This document shows positions 1 to 10,302 of a DNA stretch of 10,302 nucleotides, piece by piece. The notes below the pieces were generated by a model. It made no database searches and was not told the DNA's origin. It saw only the letters and a list, made by a program, of their open reading frames with translations. The stretch lies in the IMG/VR virus record IMGVR_UViG_2718217859_000003; one strand, 5' to 3'. Each line of letters starts with the position of its first letter. The first letter of the stretch is position 1. The translations under genes were made by a program, and so were the position numbers. This DNA comes from a virus. Lineage: Duplodnaviria > Heunggongvirae > Uroviricota > Caudoviricetes.

Positions 1-372
1 TTACTTCCTGCGTTTATCCCGCTTTGTATGTCCGTGCTGAATGCCCCGCAGTGGATCTTCTTTTTTCAGGTCGATCCCCATGTCCGTTAGTGTTTTTGTG
101 GCGGCGGTTCTTATGGCACAAATCAGGTCTCTTTCCGGTTCCCGGGTTATGGTTGCCTTCCGGATACATGCCGTTCGTCGTTCCGTTACATACTGACGCG
201 CTTCATCACTTGCCGCCTGTTTCAGTAACTCACCCCAGCGATTAGCCGCCCGTCGCCATAAACCTTTCGCTTCCAGTTCTTCCGCTTTGTCATCATGCAC
301 CATAAGCATAATCCCATTGATACCTGTTAAATCTGAATGGTTGGTTTCCGTTCTTTTGATAATTTCCCTCAT
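1..372 (-). CDS. PerC-family transcriptional activator-like protein (start codon ambiguous: ATG at 372, 309 or 303)
   Basis: Complete ORF with stop at 1-3. The motif EELEAKGLWRRAANRW resembles the conserved core I recall for PerC/Pch-type activators. No clear SD upstream of the ATG at 372, so the true start may be an internal Met. Confidence 0.5.
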   Translation of the reverse strand: MREIIKRTETNHSDLTGINGIMLMVHDDKAEELEAKGLWRRAANRWGELLKQAASDEARQYVTERRTACIRKATITREPERDLICAIRTAATKTLTDMGIDLKKEDPLRGIQHGHTKRDKRRK

Positions 373-1378: not shown

Positions 1379-3268
1379 TCATAGTGAATCGGTACCGCCT
1401 GATTTGACCATACCGCGATAATCCAGAGCGGCCACACCAGCATCAATACGGACTTTCCAGGCCACACCGTCAACGATGAAACCTTCCTGCTGTTCAAGGT
1501 AAGGCTCGTCATTGCCATCAAGATAAGCCACCTCGATTGTGTCCGTTCCCTGTGCGGAAAGCATGTACCATTGTTTTTCGCTGATATCATCAAGGCGGGG
1601 ATCGACGATAATATCCAGTAGTTTGTGATACGGGTTAAAGATCCCGCTGTTTTTATCTGCCCCGAAAGGTGCGGTTGAGTTAATCATCTGCAACGCGCGA
1701 TCTTCCAGTGCTGCCGGAACTAAAAGGAATTTAGGCGCAATATTCAGCACTTCGCCATTTTTGTCCTTCTGTGTGCGCATCAGGTGACGTGCTGCACTAA
1801 GTCCCGGTGTTGTCAGTCCTGCTTCAATCAGGTTGCTGTGTTTTTTGTCAAACAGCGCTATTCCATCAGAAAGTTTTACGTTGCCTGTAAGCACCAGATT
1901 AACCAGATTTCCCACCGTTCTTGATGCTGCACGGCCCATAGCCATTGGCACCGTTGATAACTGATCAAGGTCATCATTGATTATCGCCTGGCGGGTAATG
2001 CTGAAAATATTCCCGTAAGTAGCCAGCGCGATGGGTTCACCGCGATCGCTGGTGGTGATGTATTTATATTCTGCCCCTTCCGGCACTTTGTTTAACGTAG
2101 AGAAACCATTCAGACCAACGCGGCGGGCTTCACGAAAGTTTGAAAGGGAACCTTTTTTCGTCCACTGGCGGAATGTTTCGCCGCTGTGCTCCCAGCCTGC
2201 AAGCACTGATTTTTCAGCACCACCAGCAAGGATATCGGTAAAATCGCTGCTGCTGTGGTTGAATGCCGCGTTTACTATCTGCGAGCGTGTTCCGTAGCTG
2301 CCCGTGCTTATACCACGATGGGTTAATGATGCCTGTGCCATATCGAAAAGGCTCATCATGGCGTAAGGATTACCGCGTTCGGCCCGTTCGTGACCAAGAC
2401 GCGCATTAAGCCCCTGGCGCATTGCATCGCCGGTTATGTTGCCGTTATCCGTGTACGCGTAGTAAAGATTTGCGGGGGTGGTTTTATTTGTTGGCGTTGA
2501 TTCTTTACCCATAGCGAGTAAAAGGCGTTCGCGTGCATTCTCAACGCTACATTCTGAATCAGCAAGACAACTTATAGCCAGGTCGTTATATCTTCCGTTG
2601 AACGTGCCAAACAATTCACGGATGCCGTTAAGTCGTTCCTGTTCGCCACTGCCAGTTTTCTGGCTGATCATGCTTTTAATTTTTTCCGGCATATTTGAAA
2701 AATCTCCGATTCGTTTTGATTCAATTCGGGCCATTGCTGTAATCGCGGGTATAACCTCATCTGCGAAGCCGTTAGCCTTACACTCATTGCCATCCATCCA
2801 GGTTTCCGCCTCCATCATGGCGGTGATTTCCTGTTTGCTCCTGCCCGTTCTTCCGGCGTAGGTTTCAGCCATCGTGTCGCCCAGCTTGTCCATCAGGTCA
2901 GCAAAGCGGCGAACGTCGCCCGACACTCCGGCAGTAACACCACGGGGGGCATGTATCATCATCATTGCGTTTTCAGGCATAACGATGTGATCGCCACACA
3001 TGGCAATAAACGAGGCCATAGAAGCCGCCATGCCTTCAATGTGTACAATTTTCTTTGCCGGATGATTTTTCAGGGCGTTATAGATAGCCAGCCCTTCAAA
3101 GATGTCGCCACCAGGTGAATGGATGCGAAGATGGATTTCAGACGCATTACCACACGCGTTGATCTCGTCAGTAAGTGCCGATGCTTTTACACCGTACCCG
3201 CCGATCTCGTCATAAATGCGCACATAGACAACATCTGCCATAGCCTTAATGGAAAACCATGTTTTCAT
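1379..3268 (-). CDS. Prohead protease (ClpP-like serine protease) fused to an HK97-fold major capsid protein, single 629-aa polypeptide
   Basis: Strong SD (AGGAG, 8 nt upstream of the ATG at 3268). N-terminal third carries ClpP-type motifs: IHSPGGDIFEGLAIYNAL, GMAASMASF (Ser) and MMMIHAP (His). The C-terminal segment FSITRQAIINDDLDQLS resembles the HK97 gp5 stretch ASRQVMDDAPMLQS as I recall it. Confidence 0.8.
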   Translation of the reverse strand: MKTWFSIKAMADVVYVRIYDEIGGYGVKASALTDEINACGNASEIHLRIHSPGGDIFEGLAIYNALKNHPAKKIVHIEGMAASMASFIAMCGDHIVMPENAMMMIHAPRGVTAGVSGDVRRFADLMDKLGDTMAETYAGRTGRSKQEITAMMEAETWMDGNECKANGFADEVIPAITAMARIESKRIGDFSNMPEKIKSMISQKTGSGEQERLNGIRELFGTFNGRYNDLAISCLADSECSVENARERLLLAMGKESTPTNKTTPANLYYAYTDNGNITGDAMRQGLNARLGHERAERGNPYAMMSLFDMAQASLTHRGISTGSYGTRSQIVNAAFNHSSSDFTDILAGGAEKSVLAGWEHSGETFRQWTKKGSLSNFREARRVGLNGFSTLNKVPEGAEYKYITTSDRGEPIALATYGNIFSITRQAIINDDLDQLSTVPMAMGRAASRTVGNLVNLVLTGNVKLSDGIALFDKKHSNLIEAGLTTPGLSAARHLMRTQKDKNGEVLNIAPKFLLVPAALEDRALQMINSTAPFGADKNSGIFNPYHKLLDIIVDPRLDDISEKQWYMLSAQGTDTIEVAYLDGNDEPYLEQQEGFIVDGVAWKVRIDAGVAALDYRGMVKSGGTDSL

Positions 3269-4447: not shown

Positions 4448-6253
4448 TTAATTTTTGCTATCGTCATTAGTGACCGATACACATGATGGCATCCAGTCTT
4501 CTGATTCCTCCTTCAGTGTCACGTTTGAACGCAAACCGTGCTTCGTTTTCCGTTTCATATACTCCCTGCCATATTCCGCCATTGCCCCCGGAATATCTTT
4601 ACCGAAGCGCGTCAGTGTTACAGGCTTACCGAATCCGTGTGCCCTCATATATGCCAGATAGGCGTGATAAAGATACCTGCGCGGACTGAACGGAATAATT
4701 TCGGCATTACCCACTAACAGACCATCACACATTACCGACGACATGAGATAGCCGCAGAAGTCCACCAGCGAATCGCCCTCGCGTTTTATCACCAGAGCTT
4801 CTTCTGATTTCTGCTGCTCATACAGCAAGCGTTTAGCTTCGTCCTGGTCAGAAAAACGAGTAAGCAGGTGGCGAATCACAACCGCCAGCTCTCCTTCTAT
4901 TTTTTCTGCCAGCATGGAGTCGCGTTCGTTTTCCGGTACAACCTCCGAAAAATTGAATATCACCCGACGACGTGAGATCCCCCCGCTGCGGTCACTGAAT
5001 GACATGGCGTTATTGTTCACCGCCAGCACGACCGCCTGAATGCGTGTTGAGTAGGGGGCTTTATGCTTCGGGTCGATTGCCACCTTGTCACCGCCTGTAA
5101 TGGCCTTAATTCCTGCGCCATCACCAGCGTAGCGGGTCATATCCGGCATGATAATCAGCGAAAAGCCAACCACTAACGCGCGTTCCCTGGCATCTTCCAG
5201 CGCCTTCATGCTTGCCGATACCGTGTTGGCCTTACCCGCCAGCATGGTGCAAATCTCCGCCATTACGCTTTTACCGCTCCCACCCGGCCCCGTTACCTCA
5301 AGAAATAACTGCCAGTCGTATCGGTTCGCCAGCACCATGAATAACGCCGCCAGTACGCGATCCGCTTTACGGTCATTCTCTGCCACCGAACGGCGCAACC
5401 ATTTCCAGAAATTCGGCGCATGCGTTGCCAGCGTTTCCCCCTCTGCTGGCGGGCTGAACGGTAATTCACTGGCAATTAACAGCCAGTCGTTTTTGTCATG
5501 CTCCCGAAAATCGCCTGTCCGGGTATCAAAAACACCGTTACTGAATCCAATCAGGTTACGGGCGGTATTCCCCATTACGGGCAAACTTAACTTCATGGTA
5601 TCGACCGCCGATTTGATGGCGTTCTGCGAATAACTAATCTCCGCATCAATAAAAATCTGCGCCATAGCCCGCTGTAACTCTTTATCCTGTACCGGCTCCC
5701 ATACAACGCCGTTGTAGTGGTGAACGGTGTCAGAGTCCGCATTGATTGCCAGTTCACCGCCATAACGTGCCAGGAGAACTTCGCCGCGCTGGCTTGCTCC
5801 CATCTGGTTAAGAGCCAGTGGTGCGGCGTTGTCTTCTGTTTTTTTCTTAACAGGAAGCTGAATAACCAGACCATCAGAAAGATTCTGGCGCTCACGGGCC
5901 AGATATTCGCGCCAGTTTTCCACCTCCTGACCGTGCATTCCCTCAGGGTAATATCTCGCATCCCGTACACCTGCCGCCGCCAGCTTTTGCCCGATGGCAT
6001 TAATATTTGACGGCTTGATGTGGCCTGCCTTGTACAGCCGGACATAATAGCGACCATCGTCGATAATTTTCAGGTCTGCCAGTTCATCAAGCTGGCTGTC
6101 TCCCAGCCATACAGGCGGGACGTTATCGCCAGCAAGTCGCCCGTCCTGTTCCTGCCATTGTTTCGCGTGCGCCCAGGCATCACTACCCGCAAAAATAATG
6201 ACTTCGGTCATTTTGTCGTGCGGCTGTTTTTTTAAGTTTGGTGCCAGTTTCAT
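4448..6253 (-). CDS. Replicative primase-helicase, P4 alpha-like (phage/plasmid primase with P-loop NTPase and C-terminal DNA-binding region)
   Basis: 601-aa ORF with SD-like AGGGG upstream. Walker A motif VTGPGGSGKSV in the middle; the N-terminal region fits a primase domain. Its position directly upstream of the cognate iterons matches P4 alpha and PICI pri-rep genes. Confidence 0.85.
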   Translation of the reverse strand: MKLAPNLKKQPHDKMTEVIIFAGSDAWAHAKQWQEQDGRLAGDNVPPVWLGDSQLDELADLKIIDDGRYYVRLYKAGHIKPSNINAIGQKLAAAGVRDARYYPEGMHGQEVENWREYLARERQNLSDGLVIQLPVKKKTEDNAAPLALNQMGASQRGEVLLARYGGELAINADSDTVHHYNGVVWEPVQDKELQRAMAQIFIDAEISYSQNAIKSAVDTMKLSLPVMGNTARNLIGFSNGVFDTRTGDFREHDKNDWLLIASELPFSPPAEGETLATHAPNFWKWLRRSVAENDRKADRVLAALFMVLANRYDWQLFLEVTGPGGSGKSVMAEICTMLAGKANTVSASMKALEDARERALVVGFSLIIMPDMTRYAGDGAGIKAITGGDKVAIDPKHKAPYSTRIQAVVLAVNNNAMSFSDRSGGISRRRVIFNFSEVVPENERDSMLAEKIEGELAVVIRHLLTRFSDQDEAKRLLYEQQKSEEALVIKREGDSLVDFCGYLMSSVMCDGLLVGNAEIIPFSPRRYLYHAYLAYMRAHGFGKPVTLTRFGKDIPGAMAEYGREYMKRKTKHGLRSNVTLKEESEDWMPSCVSVTNDDSKN

Positions 6254-6813: not shown

Positions 6814-7242
6814 TTAAAACAGCTTCGTCACGAAATCAGCATAGTTAGCGGCAATATCAAGAATATTTAGCCCTGTATCTCTGTGCTCATCAGTGCAAAG
6901 AAAGAAAAAAGCCACCCGCATAATTTCAGATATTGACGAAAGCGCATCAGCCGCATCATCAGGAACGCCGGAAAATTCCTGTTTCAGGGCATTAAAACGA
7001 TCATCACGCATAACCCCCCCATTTTCACAATCAGCAATCAGGATGGCTTTAGCCTCATTCAGTGCCATATCAGCGGTAAGCTGTGCGTAGGCCAGCGAAT
7101 GGGGGATTATTGCCCCTGTATATTCCGGCTCTCTGGTAATGTGTTTTTCTGCGGTTGCTGCCGTGCATGAAATATCAATCAGCGCATCCATCAGCGTTTT
7201 GATGGCTTCGGCGGCTGCGTCCGGACGGGGGTTATTGCACAT
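6814..7242 (-). CDS. Hypothetical protein, 142 aa
   Basis: ATG at 7242 with a strong AGGAGG SD 6 nt upstream; overlaps the end of the upstream 68-aa ORF by 11 nt. Confidence 0.6.
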   Translation of the reverse strand: MCNNPRPDAAAEAIKTLMDALIDISCTAATAEKHITREPEYTGAIIPHSLAYAQLTADMALNEAKAILIADCENGGVMRDDRFNALKQEFSGVPDDAADALSSISEIMRVAFFFLCTDEHRDTGLNILDIAANYADFVTKLF

Positions 7243-7438
7243 GGCGCACCTCCTGACGAATACGGGCGGCGAATACCATCACGCAGCCAGCCGGGGATTG
7301 CTGGCGGGCTTCCTGTTCGCTGGTGGCCTCGATGGTAATCACGCGCGGTTGTGCCGTGCTCAGGGCGATAAAACGCCAGATGTATTTATTCAGGTTGTGC
7401 GAATCCCGCCCTTGCGGGTGTGTGGTATGATTTCTCAT
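7232..7438 (-). CDS. Hypothetical protein, 68 aa, first gene of the leftward replication operon
   Basis: This is the C-terminal part of the 367-aa track ORF, starting at its first plausible ATG (7438), which has a GAGG SD. The rest of that long ORF crosses the control region and is rejected. Confidence 0.45.
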   Translation of the reverse strand: MRNHTTHPQGRDSHNLNKYIWRFIALSTAQPRVITIEATSEQEARQQSPAGCVMVFAARIRQEVRHVQ

Positions 7439-7522
7439 AGCTGCCTCGATACTCTTTCTATCGTTGGTGGTTAGACGCCCTGCATGTGTGCCACCACTGC
7501 GGGGCGTTGCGTTTTTTGATGC

Positions 7523-7579
7523 ACACGTGTTAAGGTGTACACCTACAAAGCAAAAACATAACGCCATAGGTGTACACAT
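7523..7579. promoter_or_regulatory. Divergent control region with palindromic operators
   Basis: ACACGTGT at 7523-7530; perfect 12-bp palindrome AGGTGTACACCT at 7533-7544; near-copy AGGTGTACACAT at 7568-7579 overlapping the SD and start of the RHH gene. Confidence 0.55.
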
Positions 7580-7772
7580 GTCAACAGTTATTAAGCGCGA
7601 TAAAAAACAAAAAGGCACAGGAAAGACCCCACCGTTCCATATGCGTATAGTTCCTGAATTGAAGGAGCAGTTTGATAACGAAGCCAGTAACGATGGAGTA
7701 AGTCTTGCCAACTGGCTTAAAGAGTTGGGGCGCGCCGAACTAAAGCGACGCGGCATTGAACCTAAAGGCTGA
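7578..7772 (+). CDS. Ribbon-helix-helix (Arc/CopG-like) DNA-binding protein, 64 aa
   Basis: ATG at 7578 with an AGGTG SD. The segment FHMRIVPELKEQFDNEAS...SLANWLKELGRAEL fits a strand-helix-helix pattern. The track's longer version starts at a TTG inside the control region and is unlikely. Confidence 0.55.
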   Translation: MSTVIKRDKKQKGTGKTPPFHMRIVPELKEQFDNEASNDGVSLANWLKELGRAELKRRGIEPKG

Positions 7773-7775
7773 TGT

Positions 7776-7895
7776 ATGACCGATAACAAACTTTCTCTAA
7801 CAGAGAATAAACCATCAGGCTTCTTACCAAGAAAAATCCTTGATGAGATCAAACGCCGCCAGCGTAAAAAATCCAAAGGAGCAGACACGGAATAG
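7776..7895 (+). CDS. Micro-ORF, 39 aa, basic C-terminus (not in the ORF track)
   Basis: Translated by hand as MTDNKLSLTENKPSGFLPRKILDEIKRRQRKKSKGADTE. The ATG is 3 nt after the RHH stop, with a weak AAGG SD. Confidence 0.3.
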   Translation: MTDNKLSLTENKPSGFLPRKILDEIKRRQRKKSKGADTE

Positions 7896-7898
7896 CTT

Positions 7899-8063
7899 AT
7901 GCAACAAATACCATACTGGCTTGGCTCTCTGTTTGTATTTGCATTTCTCATGAAATATTGCATTAGCAATGAACTTGTCGGTAATGAAAGTGCATGCGCG
8001 AGCGCTGAAAAAAATATTCCACTTCTCGTATATGAAAACGAAAGCCCTGTGAACCGCAATTGA
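7899..8063 (+). CDS. Micro-ORF, 54 aa, with hydrophobic N-terminal segment (not in the ORF track)
   Basis: Translated by hand as MQQIPYWLGSLFVFAFLMKYCISNELVGNESACASAEKNIPLLVYENESPVNRN. The ATG is 3 nt after the 39-aa stop; the region is AT-rich. Confidence 0.3.
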   Translation: MQQIPYWLGSLFVFAFLMKYCISNELVGNESACASAEKNIPLLVYENESPVNRN

Positions 8064-8159
8064 GCGAAATTTAATGAATTCACTCTTTGCCCACCAGCCG
8101 CAAATGTGGCATTGTTGGCGATGCTCATGCGTTGGGGATAACGTGTAGCTTGTGTCGAA

Positions 8160-8188
8160 GGGCCATCGTGACAGGTGGCCTTTTCTTT
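8160..8188 (+). terminator. Candidate rho-independent terminator for the rightward micro-operon
   Basis: GGGCCA, a 10-nt loop, then TGGCCT (one GU pair), followed by TTTTCTTT. Confidence 0.4.
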
Positions 8189-8226
8189 ACCTGTTATCTG
8201 GCAATTGTGGCGCTTCGTCACACGGT

Positions 8227-8235
8227 TGATATAAT
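8227..8235 (+). promoter_or_regulatory. Candidate extended -10 promoter (TGaTATAAT)
   Basis: Perfect TATAAT at 8230-8235 with TG at 8227-8228; a weak -35-like TTGTGG at 8205-8210. Oriented toward the 3' end of alpA. Confidence 0.3.
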
Positions 8236-8284
8236 TCCCCTGCACTGATCCATTTTTTTCGCAGCAGGTTAATTGTTCGCAAGG

Positions 8285-8309
8285 GCGCTCCGGCAACGGG
8301 GCGCTTTTT
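8285..8309 (+). terminator. Rho-independent terminator with GNRA tetraloop
   Basis: GCGCTCCG-GCAA-CGGGGCGC (8-bp stem including one GU pair) followed by TTTTT. Strand-specific: there is no U-run on the minus strand. Confidence 0.6.
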
Positions 8310-8339
8310 GTTATGTTCATCACGTTACGCCTCACACCA

Positions 8340-8546
8340 TTACGCAGCCGTTCCGCGCGCTTCTTCCTCGCGCTCTTTCAGCCAGGCCAGCACTTCATCT
8401 TCATACCAGCCAACACGACGCAGACCGATTTTGAAGCCTTTCGGAAATTTTCCGGCGTTGATCATGTCCTGTAGCGAACTGTCTGCCTTGATGCGCAGAA
8501 TATTTTTTACTTCCTGACGGGTAAGAATTTTTCTGATTGTTTCCAC
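8340..8546 (-). CDS. alpA: AlpA-family phage transcriptional regulator / excisionase-like HTH protein
   Basis: 68 aa, GTG start with AGGT SD. The pattern FPKGFKIGLRRVGWYEDEVLAWL matches the AlpA core I recall. Small regulator near the integrase, as in P4-like elements and Gram-negative PICIs. Confidence 0.8.
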   Translation of the reverse strand: METIRKILTRQEVKNILRIKADSSLQDMINAGKFPKGFKIGLRRVGWYEDEVLAWLKEREEEARGTAA

Positions 8547-8615
8547 TATGTTTTACCTCGTTAATCCGGCGTATTCCGGTGATAAATACGGTAAAACAGG
8601 GCAGGGCGGGAAAAA

Positions 8616-8651
8616 CAGTACCCACCGTTTTAAAACGGTACCCACTGTTTT
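8616..8651. promoter_or_regulatory. Two tandem 20-bp repeats AAAACRGTACCCACYGTTTT upstream of alpA
   Basis: cAGTACCCACcGTTTT at 8616-8631 and cGGTACCCACtGTTTT at 8636-8651, 20 bp centre to centre, with the palindrome CCGTTTTAAAACGG (8625-8638) bridging them. Confidence 0.5.
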
Positions 8652-8716: not shown

Positions 8717-8959
8717 TTACCGTTTCCACTTCTTAGGTCGCCCACCGCATTTAAGGCTGGTGGGCCTCAGCACCTTGTCGATGCTTTCAGCCAGATTTTT
8801 CGATGCGCCACGCGAGCGCAAAAAACTGACTACCTCGTGTTTTGTGGGGGCAGTTGATTTGTCTTCCGGATCGTACGTTGACCAGAATTCACGATTTGCC
8901 ATTAAGGCCAACTGAAGGCCTTCACCATAGGCAGGGGATACCTTTTCATTGAAAAACAC
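8717..8959 (-). CDS. Hypothetical small basic protein, 80 aa, GTG start, between integrase and alpA
   Basis: Perfect AAGGAG SD 8 nt upstream of the GTG at 8959. The basic C-terminus (GGRPKKWKR) suggests nucleic-acid binding. Its own terminator implies co-transcription with int. Confidence 0.5.
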   Translation of the reverse strand: MFFNEKVSPAYGEGLQLALMANREFWSTYDPEDKSTAPTKHEVVSFLRSRGASKNLAESIDKVLRPTSLKCGGRPKKWKR

Positions 8960-9060: not shown

Positions 9061-10302
9061 TTACACGGCACGGATACCCCTTTTACCACTGGCTATGGTC
9101 ACTCCGGTTGCTGCGGCCTCTACAAATTCCCCCCACCAGCGCATAAGCACCACGCGCTTTTCCAGGTAGTTACTTCGGTTATATGCTCGCCTTACCTCGT
9201 TCGTGTCCACGTGTGCGAGTGCGGCCTCGATTACGTCCGGCTCGAATCCTTCCTCGTTCGCTGCTGTGCTGAATATGGCGCGTAATCCATGAGACACCAG
9301 CACGCCAGCGAATCCCATTCGCCGCAATGCTGCGTTGGCGGTCTGGCTGTTCATAGGCTGCCGTGGGTCTTTCAGGCTAGGGAAAACGTGCTCGCGGTGG
9401 TGGCTGATTGGCTTCATGGCCTCCAGTACCGCCATAGCCTGACTACAAAGCGGGATAACGTGATCACGCCGCATCTTCATGCGTCCGGCGGGGATCGTCC
9501 ATTGTTGCGCGTCCATGTCGATTTCTTCCCAGCGTGCTGACGATGCTTCAACCGGACGGGTTACAGTCAGTAGCTGCCATTCAATCAGTAATCTGGTCTG
9601 CCGTTCTGTTGCTGATACGGATAAAGCCTGCATAAGCTCCGGCAACTGTTCGGGGCGGATTGTTGGCATATGTTTTTTTACAGGGGAGGGGAACGCCTTA
9701 CGCACATTCATAGCCGGATTGGCATCAATCAGCCCACTGTTGGCGGCGTAATCCATTACCTCATTAACGCGCTGTAAAACCCGCTTGAGTGTTTCCAGGT
9801 TGCCGCGCTCCTTGATGGGTGTAAGCACCTCAACGAACCTTCGGGCAGTGAGGGTATCTATTGGCGTGTTGCCGATGAACGGGAATACATATTTATCCAG
9901 CGAACGCCAGATGTCTTTAATCGTGTTGGGGGCCAGATTCTGGCTGATTTTCACCTGGTACCATGCCGCCGCCACATTTTCGAACGTGTTCCCTTGTCTT
10001 CGGGCCTCTGCCTCTCGTTTTTTCTTCTCATGGTCCTGCGGGTCAGTTCCGGCACTGATTAACGTCCTGTACTCGCTACGGCGTTTTCTGGCATCAGCCA
10101 GGGAAACATCTTCAAGAGATCCAAAACTCAGCAATATTCTTTTTTTGTCCGATGGTCGGTAGTAGGAAAATCGCCAGAGTTTTGATCCGGACGGTTTTAC
10201 CAGGAGAAAAAGCCCACCGCCGTCCTGTAGGGTGTACTCCTTTTGCGCTGGTCTGGCTGCTTTGATCTGCACTGTGGTTAATGGGGGTGTTTTTCTCGCC
10301 AT
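9061..10302 (-). CDS. int: Tyrosine site-specific integrase, P4-type (phage integrase family)
   Basis: 413 aa; the start codon sits exactly at the window edge. N-terminal arm-binding-like region (GGGLFLLVKPSGSKLWRFSYY), C-terminal catalytic signatures HGLRAIFST and a tyrosine in RRAYNRSNYLEKR. Confidence 0.93.
   Translation of the reverse strand: MARKTPPLTTVQIKAARPAQKEYTLQDGGGLFLLVKPSGSKLWRFSYYRPSDKKRILLSFGSLEDVSLADARKRRSEYRTLISAGTDPQDHEKKKREAEARRQGNTFENVAAAWYQVKISQNLAPNTIKDIWRSLDKYVFPFIGNTPIDTLTARRFVEVLTPIKERGNLETLKRVLQRVNEVMDYAANSGLIDANPAMNVRKAFPSPVKKHMPTIRPEQLPELMQALSVSATERQTRLLIEWQLLTVTRPVEASSARWEEIDMDAQQWTIPAGRMKMRRDHVIPLCSQAMAVLEAMKPISHHREHVFPSLKDPRQPMNSQTANAALRRMGFAGVLVSHGLRAIFSTAANEEGFEPDVIEAALAHVDTNEVRRAYNRSNYLEKRVVLMRWWGEFVEAAATGVTIASGKRGIRAV

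Follow-up and report, generated by a model that had tools for sequence, protein, structure and literature searches.

Gram-negative PICIs (chromosomal islands that phages can induce) are satellites whose master regulator, AlpA, activates its own promoter (PMC6092414; PMC11773190). This self-activation of the alpA promoter has been described in EcCICFT073 and EcCIMP1, two related islands for which helper induction and packaging experiments exist (PMC6092414; PMC11773190). Helper phages induce alpA through a factor not yet identified (PMC6092414; PMC11773190); the induction is reported to be SOS-independent, and Gram-negative PICIs to lack a known master repressor (PMC6092414). How the helper switches on alpA, and hence the satellite life cycle, is an acknowledged question (PMC6092414; PMC10803314). 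Here we analyze a 10,302-nt stretch of viral DNA (Caudoviricetes, IMG/VR record IMGVR_UViG_2718217859_000003), hereafter the window, in which the alpA gene of such a satellite is preceded by two abutting 20-bp units. The repeats, their conservation, the synteny of the locus, and the association of the repeat motif with a protein domain are established here. On balance, and with modest confidence, we read the two units as paired operator boxes of the alpA control region, with core GGTGGGTAC and extended form AWNGGTGGGTAC, that would be bound by p80, an 80-residue basic protein encoded upstream. All coordinates refer to the whole window, and locus labels such as L001, L043, and L126 denote compared sequences.

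One of the closest described arrangements is the late promoter PLL of satellite P4, which lies before vis, the P4 homologue of alpA, and which, like the promoter considered here, belongs to an alpA/vis gene heading the main operon of a satellite. In both cases a symmetric upstream box is followed by a C-rich stretch, a poor -35, and a CCGG...CCGG element, and the ribosome-binding region before vis and alpA is identical (ATTAACGAGGTA). Boxes of the P2/P4 late-promoter class have the form TGT-N12-ACA, with the dyad centred near -55, and that of P4 is read by zinc-finger activators. On the minus strand of P4 (L176, 9090-9150), the Ogr/delta box TGTAAGACAGCCTGAACA is followed by TCCCCCCTG, and in the window (8598-8631) TCCCGCCCTG comes after the proximal unit with nearly the same offset. 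The likeness of the two promoters may be a remnant of common ancestry; however, the alignment of the window with P4 is weak, and we treat the likeness as an analogy, not as demonstrated homology. The two promoters also differ: in the window AWNGGTGGGTAC is present as two direct copies, for which the candidate reader, encoded upstream, is a small helical protein unrelated to those activators.

Three further systems invite comparison. [quoted passage not shown] The route by which the helper activates alpA was left open, and the authors propose a role for iolg in the excision complex (PMC10803314). The p80 gene is alike in being a gene of unassigned function between int and alpA that forms one unit with int. 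The PICMI case differs in that the proposed role concerns excision rather than transcription, in that no cis-element is described, and in that the traced members of the p80 family belong to Enterobacterales; no fis gene adjoins the distant loci that encode a p80 domain. In Staphylococcus aureus pathogenicity islands (SaPIs), which are Gram-positive PICIs, the island-encoded DNA-binding protein Stl gates the promoter of the activation genes, as p80 would if it binds as we infer, and the variable N-terminal regions joined to a conserved C-terminal domain in the p80 family recall the diversification of a sensor. Stl, however, is a master repressor whose gene is transcribed divergently and whose action helper proteins counteract, whereas the p80 gene is co-directional with alpA, with a terminator between them, and p80 shares no sequence or fold similarity with Stl. 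Finally, the operators of recombination directionality factors (RDFs) such as lambda Xis, P2 Cox, and P4 Vis invite comparison because the units, too, are direct repeats, lying beside a gene of the AlpA/Vis type in the control region of a satellite. The sites of these factors are short direct repeats at the attachment site (att) as well as at their own promoters, with one-turn phasing, whereas the 20-bp units have a two-turn spacing, do not occur at att, and show no co-variation with AlpA.

The features of the control region, all on the minus strand, are listed in the direction of transcription:

9061-10302, minus strand: P4-type tyrosine integrase gene (int) with an Arm-DNA-bind_3 domain, the first gene of the int-p80 unit.
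8717-8959, minus strand: p80 gene, encoding the 80-residue basic protein, with a GTG start and an AAGGAG Shine-Dalgarno sequence 8 nt upstream.
8712-8687, minus strand: intrinsic terminator, a 10-bp stem followed by a T run, which ends the int/p80 transcript.
8632-8651, minus strand: alpA-distal 20-bp unit, sense AAAACAGTGGGTACCGTTTT, with core AGTGGGTAC at 8638-8646 and its centre 96 bp before the alpA start.
8612-8631, minus strand: alpA-proximal 20-bp unit, sense AAAACGGTGGGTACTGTTTT, with core GGTGGGTAC at 8618-8626 and its centre 76 bp before the alpA start.
8598-8611, minus strand: G+C-rich spacer that separates the boxes from the conserved core region; sense TCCCGCCCTGCCCT.
8562-8581, minus strand: 10-bp boxes CACCGGAATA and CGCCGGATTA, arranged in tandem within the alpA leader or core promoter; putative AlpA sites.
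8340-8546, minus strand: alpA, 68 codons, with a GTG start and a GAGG Shine-Dalgarno sequence at 8556-8559.

On the plus strand the units read AAAACAGTACCCACCGTTTT (8612-8631) and AAAACGGTACCCACTGTTTT (8632-8651); they are arranged head-to-tail, abut exactly, and are identical at 18 of 20 positions. A preliminary description had placed the tandem repeat at 8588-8651: the two units are there, but that start lies 24 bp too far to the left. Its further points hold up, namely the internal symmetry of each unit (a dyad AAAACNGT-N4-ACNGTTTT), the palindrome that joins them (CCGTTTTAAAACGG, 8625-8638), and the spacing of two helical turns, which at 20 bp amounts to ~1.9. The same can be said of the position upstream of alpA, since every gene is on the minus strand and the units precede the alpA GTG (8546) by 66-105 bp, downstream of the terminator (8712-8687) that insulates alpA from int/p80 transcription, and of the identity of alpA itself, whose product matches PF05930 (4.5e-8) and whose homologues are documented PICI master regulators (PMC6092414; PMC11773190). 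The pattern AAAACRGTACCCACYGTTTT, with up to three mismatches, occurs at only these two places in the 10.3-kb window and in none of 200 dinucleotide shuffles, and all four AAAAC[AG]GT half-sites of the window fall in the repeat region. The core GGTGGGTAC is the reverse complement of GTACCCAC. A partial half-site, GGTAAAACAG at 8590-8599, which the earlier start coordinate takes in, is not retained as a repeat in islands of the Nissle type. By consensus, no sigma-70 promoter was found between the terminator and alpA, and no -35 in the spacer 8598-8611. Several weak -10 candidates can be picked out by eye in the alpA control region, none of them compelling, and a weak -10-like ATTTAT or TATTTA lies at 8583-8589.

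The main argument for p80 as the reader of these units comes from the distribution of the core motif, for which we searched with the 9-mer GGTGGGTAC from the window's proximal unit only, allowing at most one mismatch. In six distant IMG/VR loci, the 1.33 kb of intergenic DNA between the p80-domain gene and alpA contains eight matches (6.0 per kb), compared to 0.11 per kb in the remainder of the same loci, and none of 1000 shuffles reaches eight. The result was replicated with seven contexts retrieved by protein sequence alone: five matches in 1.3 kb of intergenic DNA (3.8 per kb) compared to 0.12 per kb elsewhere, the observed count again being reached in none of 1000 shuffles, and 14 matches when two mismatches are permitted, where 1.2 are expected. 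In a negative set of 18 alpA upstream regions lacking a p80-domain gene, there is a single match in 4.1 kb (0.24 per kb), and it occurs at the only locus whose upstream open reading frame (ORF) weakly matches the p80 profile. Counted per locus, the box is present in 10 of 14 loci with the gene and in none of 17 without it (Fisher p = 2e-5, the loci not being independent).

The sites found in this way also agree outside the 9-mer that was searched for, with A at -3 and A/T at -2 in all 16, which defines an extended 12-bp box, AWNGGTGGGTAC; both boxes of the window follow the extended rule (AAC-GGTGGGTAC and AAC-AGTGGGTAC). This box is 30-50-fold enriched between p80-domain genes and alpA, with two subfamilies of AlpA. 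Its arrangement differs with the type of protein. In the intergenic regions compared (L227-L243), the boxes that accompany long p80-domain proteins occur as inverted pairs with a separation of 22 bp, and their distances to the alpA start are conserved at about 208 (minus strand), 186 (plus), 118/110 (minus), and 86-88 (plus) bp. Where the protein is short and stand-alone, as in the window island and a Salmonella island, they are direct repeats 20 bp and 26-28 bp apart, respectively. The two layouts would fit dimerization of the long forms through their N-terminal part. Given a p80-domain gene, the motif is found alongside two AlpA subfamilies; with window-type AlpA and no such gene, it is missing. 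It is this double dissociation that most strongly suggests that the boxes go with the p80 domain and not with AlpA.

Conservation among Escherichia coli islands points to the same core. The segment from the alpA start through the units is matched in 373 of 5426 complete E. coli genomes, of which 96 contain a window-type island and about 270 a second lineage, that of Nissle 1917 and ATCC 25922 among others, with 77-84% identity across the unit region and a different terminator. The repeats are thus present in related islands, whose lack of them the preliminary description had named as evidence against a regulatory role. For a footprint comparison, 54 copies were reduced to 20 distinct sequences. 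These show two conserved blocks, one comprising the units and the other the core/leader region, on either side of a 14-bp spacer that differs completely between the lineages. The proximal unit reads, in the sense direction, AAAACGGTG[G/A]G[T/A]ACTGTTTT, and its core deviates from GGTGGGTAC by at most one mismatch in all 20 distinct variants. The distal unit is more variable (AGTGGGTAC, AGTGAGTAC, AGTGGATAC, GGTGTATAC), with one or two mismatches in most variants; it is degenerate in L123 (1634-1673), and in L126 (12097-12116) it is missing as an exact 20-bp deletion, leaving a single unit. From the two E. coli lineages it had at an early stage appeared that the dyad arms were conserved and the GTACCCAC core unimportant, a reading overturned by the distant loci, which share the core; within the E. 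coli lineage, core and arms are both constrained.

The protein itself is conserved in parallel, with 73% identity in the Nissle-type lineage, and in the set of loci examined p80 is present exactly where the units are present. It is missing from 17 loci with window-type AlpA and from EcCICFT073. No match to p80 was found in Pfam, PHROGs, NCBIfam, or PADLOC. However, a profile search of 1.8 billion cluster representatives returned 598 matches at E <=1e-3, and in nearly all of these the p80-like part constitutes the C-terminal ~65 residues of a protein of 170-380 residues, so that by sequence p80 is a stand-alone copy of an unannotated C-terminal domain (consensus HxSEGLELxxxxIxQFWSTYDPxDxxTAPTKxEVIxYLxxxGASKNLAEAIDLILRPxxLxxxGRPxK), which in other members of the family is joined to variable N-terminal regions. 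The proteins, all annotated as hypothetical, come from Enterobacter, Escherichia, Salmonella, Citrobacter, Pectobacterium, Pantoea, Arsenophonus, Providencia, Edwardsiella, and Kluyvera, and every traced member is from Enterobacterales. In 11 of 13 non-redundant contexts the gene lies between a P4-type integrase gene and an AlpA gene, the order int - p80-domain gene - alpA being found in Enterobacter, Escherichia, Salmonella, Pectobacterium, Pantoea, Arsenophonus, and Kluyvera. The exceptions are L245, where a different small gene follows, and L244, whose record stops short of the next gene and has a helicase-like gene upstream. Often the AlpA encoded downstream belongs to another subfamily, 29-39% identical to that of the window.

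An AlphaFold2 (AF2) model of p80 predicts a three-helix bundle (residues 13-25, 40-49, and 54-64) with a basic tail, at a predicted local distance difference test (pLDDT) score of 82; a second AF2 model has a pLDDT of 77. The tail contains a conserved GGRPKKW. Three fold searches and sequence searches against solved structures gave nothing significant for p80, and the proposed DNA binding is thus without support from homology. The p80 gene of one island (L239, 1221-1460) is frameshifted, with a stop after 39 codons, while its boxes are intact and the island is still integrated. A 90-residue protein labelled as from the nematode Cooperia oncophora (P0019) consists of the N-terminal half of p80 continued by the C-terminal half of AlpA, and most likely reflects bacterial contamination plus a deletion or mis-assembly that removed the whole control region.

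These observations lead us to propose the following model. p80 would be produced from the int-p80 transcript that stops at the terminator (8712-8687). It would bind the strictly conserved proximal box with high affinity, and more weakly the distal box, which is dispensable in some natural variants. With the boxes 20 bp apart, the bound proteins would lie on nearly one face of the helix, from where they would set the activity of a promoter without a recognizable -35. AlpA would act elsewhere, at the 10-bp-phased CACCGGA boxes in the leader and also at the attachment site. The 80-residue basic protein, which the preliminary description had named beside AlpA for a gel-shift, is the best lead as reader of the boxes. 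Operator boxes for an element-encoded regulator at the promoter of a master switch are a familiar kind of element. What appears to be new is the sequence of the box, the family of its candidate reader, and the division of the alpA control region into three parts, and neither these cis-elements nor the p80 family was found described in the searchable literature.

The transcription start and the sign of regulation are, like binding by p80, inferred. If transcription starts near 8575, which the weak -10-like sequence at 8583-8589 would suit, the box centres lie near -47 and -67, upstream of the core promoter region, which is the geometry of an activator, and the positions of the units relative to the alpA start codon would be compatible with an activator-dependent promoter. 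The PLL-like layout likewise inclines us towards a positive factor, and the still integrated island with the frameshifted p80 gene is easier to reconcile with the loss of an activator than with that of an essential repressor. Several points speak against a positive role: the constitutive co-expression of p80 with int behind an insulating terminator, the ~100 bp between box pairs at the long-form loci, a degenerate reverse box that at these loci lies, as judged by eye, over the predicted -35 of an extended -10 promoter, and the unmapped alpA start site. Weighing these, and given that p80 binds at all, we lean very slightly towards an activator over a repressor.

A further, unexplained feature lies in the alpA leader. 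The segment TGTTTTACC (8589-8597, minus strand) can pair with GGTAAAACA (8550-8558, minus strand), which overlaps the alpA ribosome-binding site and in a hairpin would sequester it (fold z = -2.3), and the Nissle lineage contains one compensatory change in this pairing (TGATTTACC / GGTAAATCA). In an RNAalifold analysis of 12 lineages, the outer stem of the leader was unsupported, and only invariant CCGG/CCGG pairs were obtained, with no covariation. A real pairing would place the transcription start upstream of 8597, in which case the core promoter would be overlapped by the 20-bp units.

How a helper signal would enter this circuit is a more speculative matter. As a tentative idea, which we hold to be doubtful as it stands, p80-domain proteins could be the missing regulators that couple Gram-negative satellites to their helpers, with the C-terminal domain docking on AWNGGTGGGTAC and the variable N-terminal parts sensing helper proteins. 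With the same reserve, they might then be the counterpart of SaPI Stl in Enterobacterales, whether as activators or repressors, the p80 of the window being a minimal version that only binds DNA. The analysis in any case turns an anonymous repeat into three testable items: a 12-bp box, a candidate reader family of ~600 clusters, and a separate candidate AlpA box. If confirmed, the model would supply the cis-elements of the switch that induces Gram-negative satellites together with one trans-factor, would allow the regulatory compatibility between islands to be predicted, and would provide components for engineered PICI 'drones'. Should p80 fail to bind, the repeats would still be a well-conserved operator, with another reader.

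Among other possible readers, a helper- or host-encoded transcription factor, that is, the PICI inducer, would use the units as its landing site and reduce p80 to a passenger or cofactor. The preliminary description had likewise thought of a helper-phage signal. This would agree with the switching-on of alpA by an unidentified helper factor (PMC6092414), with the lack of a recognizable -35, with the PLL-like succession of an Ogr/delta-type dyad box and a C-rich stretch, and with the variation of the upstream modules between island lineages, as if they were matched to different helpers. Yet there is no TGT-N12-ACA box between the terminator and alpA, as would be required for a late-promoter box of the Ogr/delta/Pag class, and a tblastn search of 50,697 phage records found no match to the p80 domain. 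In IMG/VR, all matches of an exact scan for the full unit belonged to this one satellite family. A scan for the relaxed dyad AAAACNGT-N4-ACNGTTTT gave, among the matches listed, that family plus single matches at about the chance number, mostly coding and many of them in one conserved phage gene; the tandem arrangement was confined, among these matches, to satellite contigs. Moreover, the motif follows an island gene across genera and AlpA types, which is unexpected for a helper or host factor. We therefore regard such a factor, including a helper-phage protein acting on the units, as improbable, on scans that covered viral records.

AlpA was the other reader suggested initially, as an autoregulator. 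The units would then be its own operator, through which it activates or represses its promoter, in line with the self-activation in EcCICFT073 and EcCIMP1 (PMC6092414; PMC11773190) and with the typical binding of Xis/Vis-type proteins to direct repeats, which is what the units in the alpA promoter region are; genetic evidence also exists for P4 Vis at PLL. We compared AlpA homologues 57-72% identical to that of the window (from Pectobacterium, Erwinia, Rahnella, Edwardsiella, Pantoea, Citrobacter, and other Escherichia) together with the prototype EcCICFT073. The helix-turn-helix and wing (...SDSxxQxMINAGEFPxGFRIGLRRVGW...) are almost invariant in this set, whereas the repeats found 40-110 bp upstream of alpA differ by lineage and are unrelated to the 20-bp units: L043 has AAAACTTCCA five times, L059 a 22-bp repeat three times, EcCICFT073 (L064, 19161-19525) GACACAA-type repeats, and further loci other motifs. 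AlpA as reader is hard to reconcile with near-invariant DNA-binding residues beside such unrelated repeats, with the occurrence of the motif alongside an AlpA subfamily of only 29-39% identity, and with its absence from 17 promoters of window-type or EcCICFT073 alpA. In addition, an RDF should bind at att too, but GGTGGGTAC with up to one mismatch is absent from both ends of the island. AlpA as reader of the units is therefore quite unlikely, and the expectations for sites in the leader and at att are met by the CACCGGA boxes instead. In islands that have a near-identical AlpA and no p80 gene (L043-L059), the lineage-specific modules in the 40-230 bp upstream of alpA include three copies of CCATTATTTAAAGTCAGAAG and repeats of TACCAACT or CCCTCAC, and different ORFs of 150-380 codons lie between int and alpA.

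The CACCGGA boxes belong to a proximal element, ACCGGA-N5-6-CCGG, that is conserved with the AlpA family across genera, where its CCGG-N6-CCGG core is invariant; in the window it takes the form CACCGGAATA CGCCGGATTA (8562-8581), and P4 has GCCGGA-N8-TCCGGT at the same place upstream of vis. The exact heptamer occurs five times in the 11-kb island (1.1 expected), four of the five being in the non-coding clusters of the leader and att, and phased CACCG(G/A)A arrays of two and three lie beside the att core and tRNA-Pro (L001, 16074-16090 and 16148-16174, outside the window). Boxes with 10-bp phasing at both att and the alpA leader fit AlpA as a Vis/Xis-type RDF, and the invariant, non-covarying CCGG/CCGG pairs of the leader fit a DNA site better than an RNA stem. 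We conclude that the CACCGGA boxes are probably the AlpA binding site. A Pseudomonas AlpA that acts as an antiterminator has GGGACG as its binding element, DNA-contact residues 128-142, and eight helices (PMC9371919); we discounted it as a guide to the present protein, since it is larger and of different architecture. Taken together, the comparisons suggest a general design in which a variable upstream module is combined with a conserved AlpA box.

That the units act as a nucleic-acid structure (an RNA hairpin serving as attenuator or terminator back-up), or are a neutral 20-bp duplication, is very unlikely: although the sense RNA folds into a 17-bp interrupted hairpin (-16.6 kcal/mol), a terminator scan flagged the junction palindrome, and copy number varies as slippage would give (one unit in L126), the fold is unremarkable (z = -1.3, with 20 of 200 shuffles folding as well), no U-tract follows the stem, the single unit of L126 and the degenerate distal unit of L123 destroy the hairpin by removing one arm, conservation is centred on the asymmetric, unpaired core, and that core recurs in unrelated arrangements at distant loci, which neither a neutral duplication nor a lineage-specific hairpin can explain.

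Several known classes of site were also rejected. The units are not integrase arm sites, as their distance from the att core exceeds 1.6 kb and the island has arm repeats of another sequence, TTTAGTTATACG, present four times from the att core to the int start (L001, ~15990-16045) and three times beyond perC (~5400-5470). The arm repeats of P4, TTGGGGGCAT, are vaguely similar to the units and were discounted on the same grounds. Replication-origin iterons were dismissed because there are only two copies, with none further in the window, 2.3 kb upstream of the primase gene. Compared with the LexA box CTGT-N8-ACAG, the units read ACAGT...ACTGT, which is the inverse order with another spacing. None of the host-factor sites considered (NarL/NarP heptamer TACYYMT, DnaA box, GntR-type GT-N-AC palindromes, PurR, and ArgR) fits the conserved positions. 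The longest exact match between the two ends of the island, 16 bp (AAACGTATAACTAAAA), lies inside the arm repeats, and no att core repeat was identified.

The window is 100% identical to a stretch of an E. coli chromosome, in which it forms an island of ~10 kb inserted at tRNA-Pro, with yejM on one side and yejO on the other. Every long ORF of the window is on the minus strand, and by its gene order (int, alpA, and primase in one direction, int pointing inward, and a specific att site) the element is a Gram-negative PICI-type satellite. A scan of the whole window against Rfam gave no family match. The remaining genes are the following:

7232-8335, minus strand: ORF of 367 codons, starting 4 nt past the alpA stop.
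After alpA in the gene order, minus strand: DUF4222 gene.
4448-6253, minus strand: D5/P4-type primase gene.
1379-3268, minus strand: gene for a ClpP-protease/major-capsid fusion.
1-372, minus strand: PerC-family gene.

The 367-codon ORF has no annotation in RefSeq, which labels part of the region an Icd-like pseudogene, and only the last ~90 residues of its product match a PHROG, labelled 'transcriptional repressor'. The 4-nt gap between the alpA stop and this ORF would permit translational coupling, which has been reported for vis-eta of P4. In the island, the ClpP-like prohead protease is fused to the major capsid protein, and genes for a portal, a terminase, or head completion are missing from the window. 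Sister islands (L017-L019) that occupy the same tRNA-Pro site instead contain a different capsid, a decoration protein, a small terminase subunit, or a RepA helicase, which indicates that the late and replication modules are strongly mosaic.

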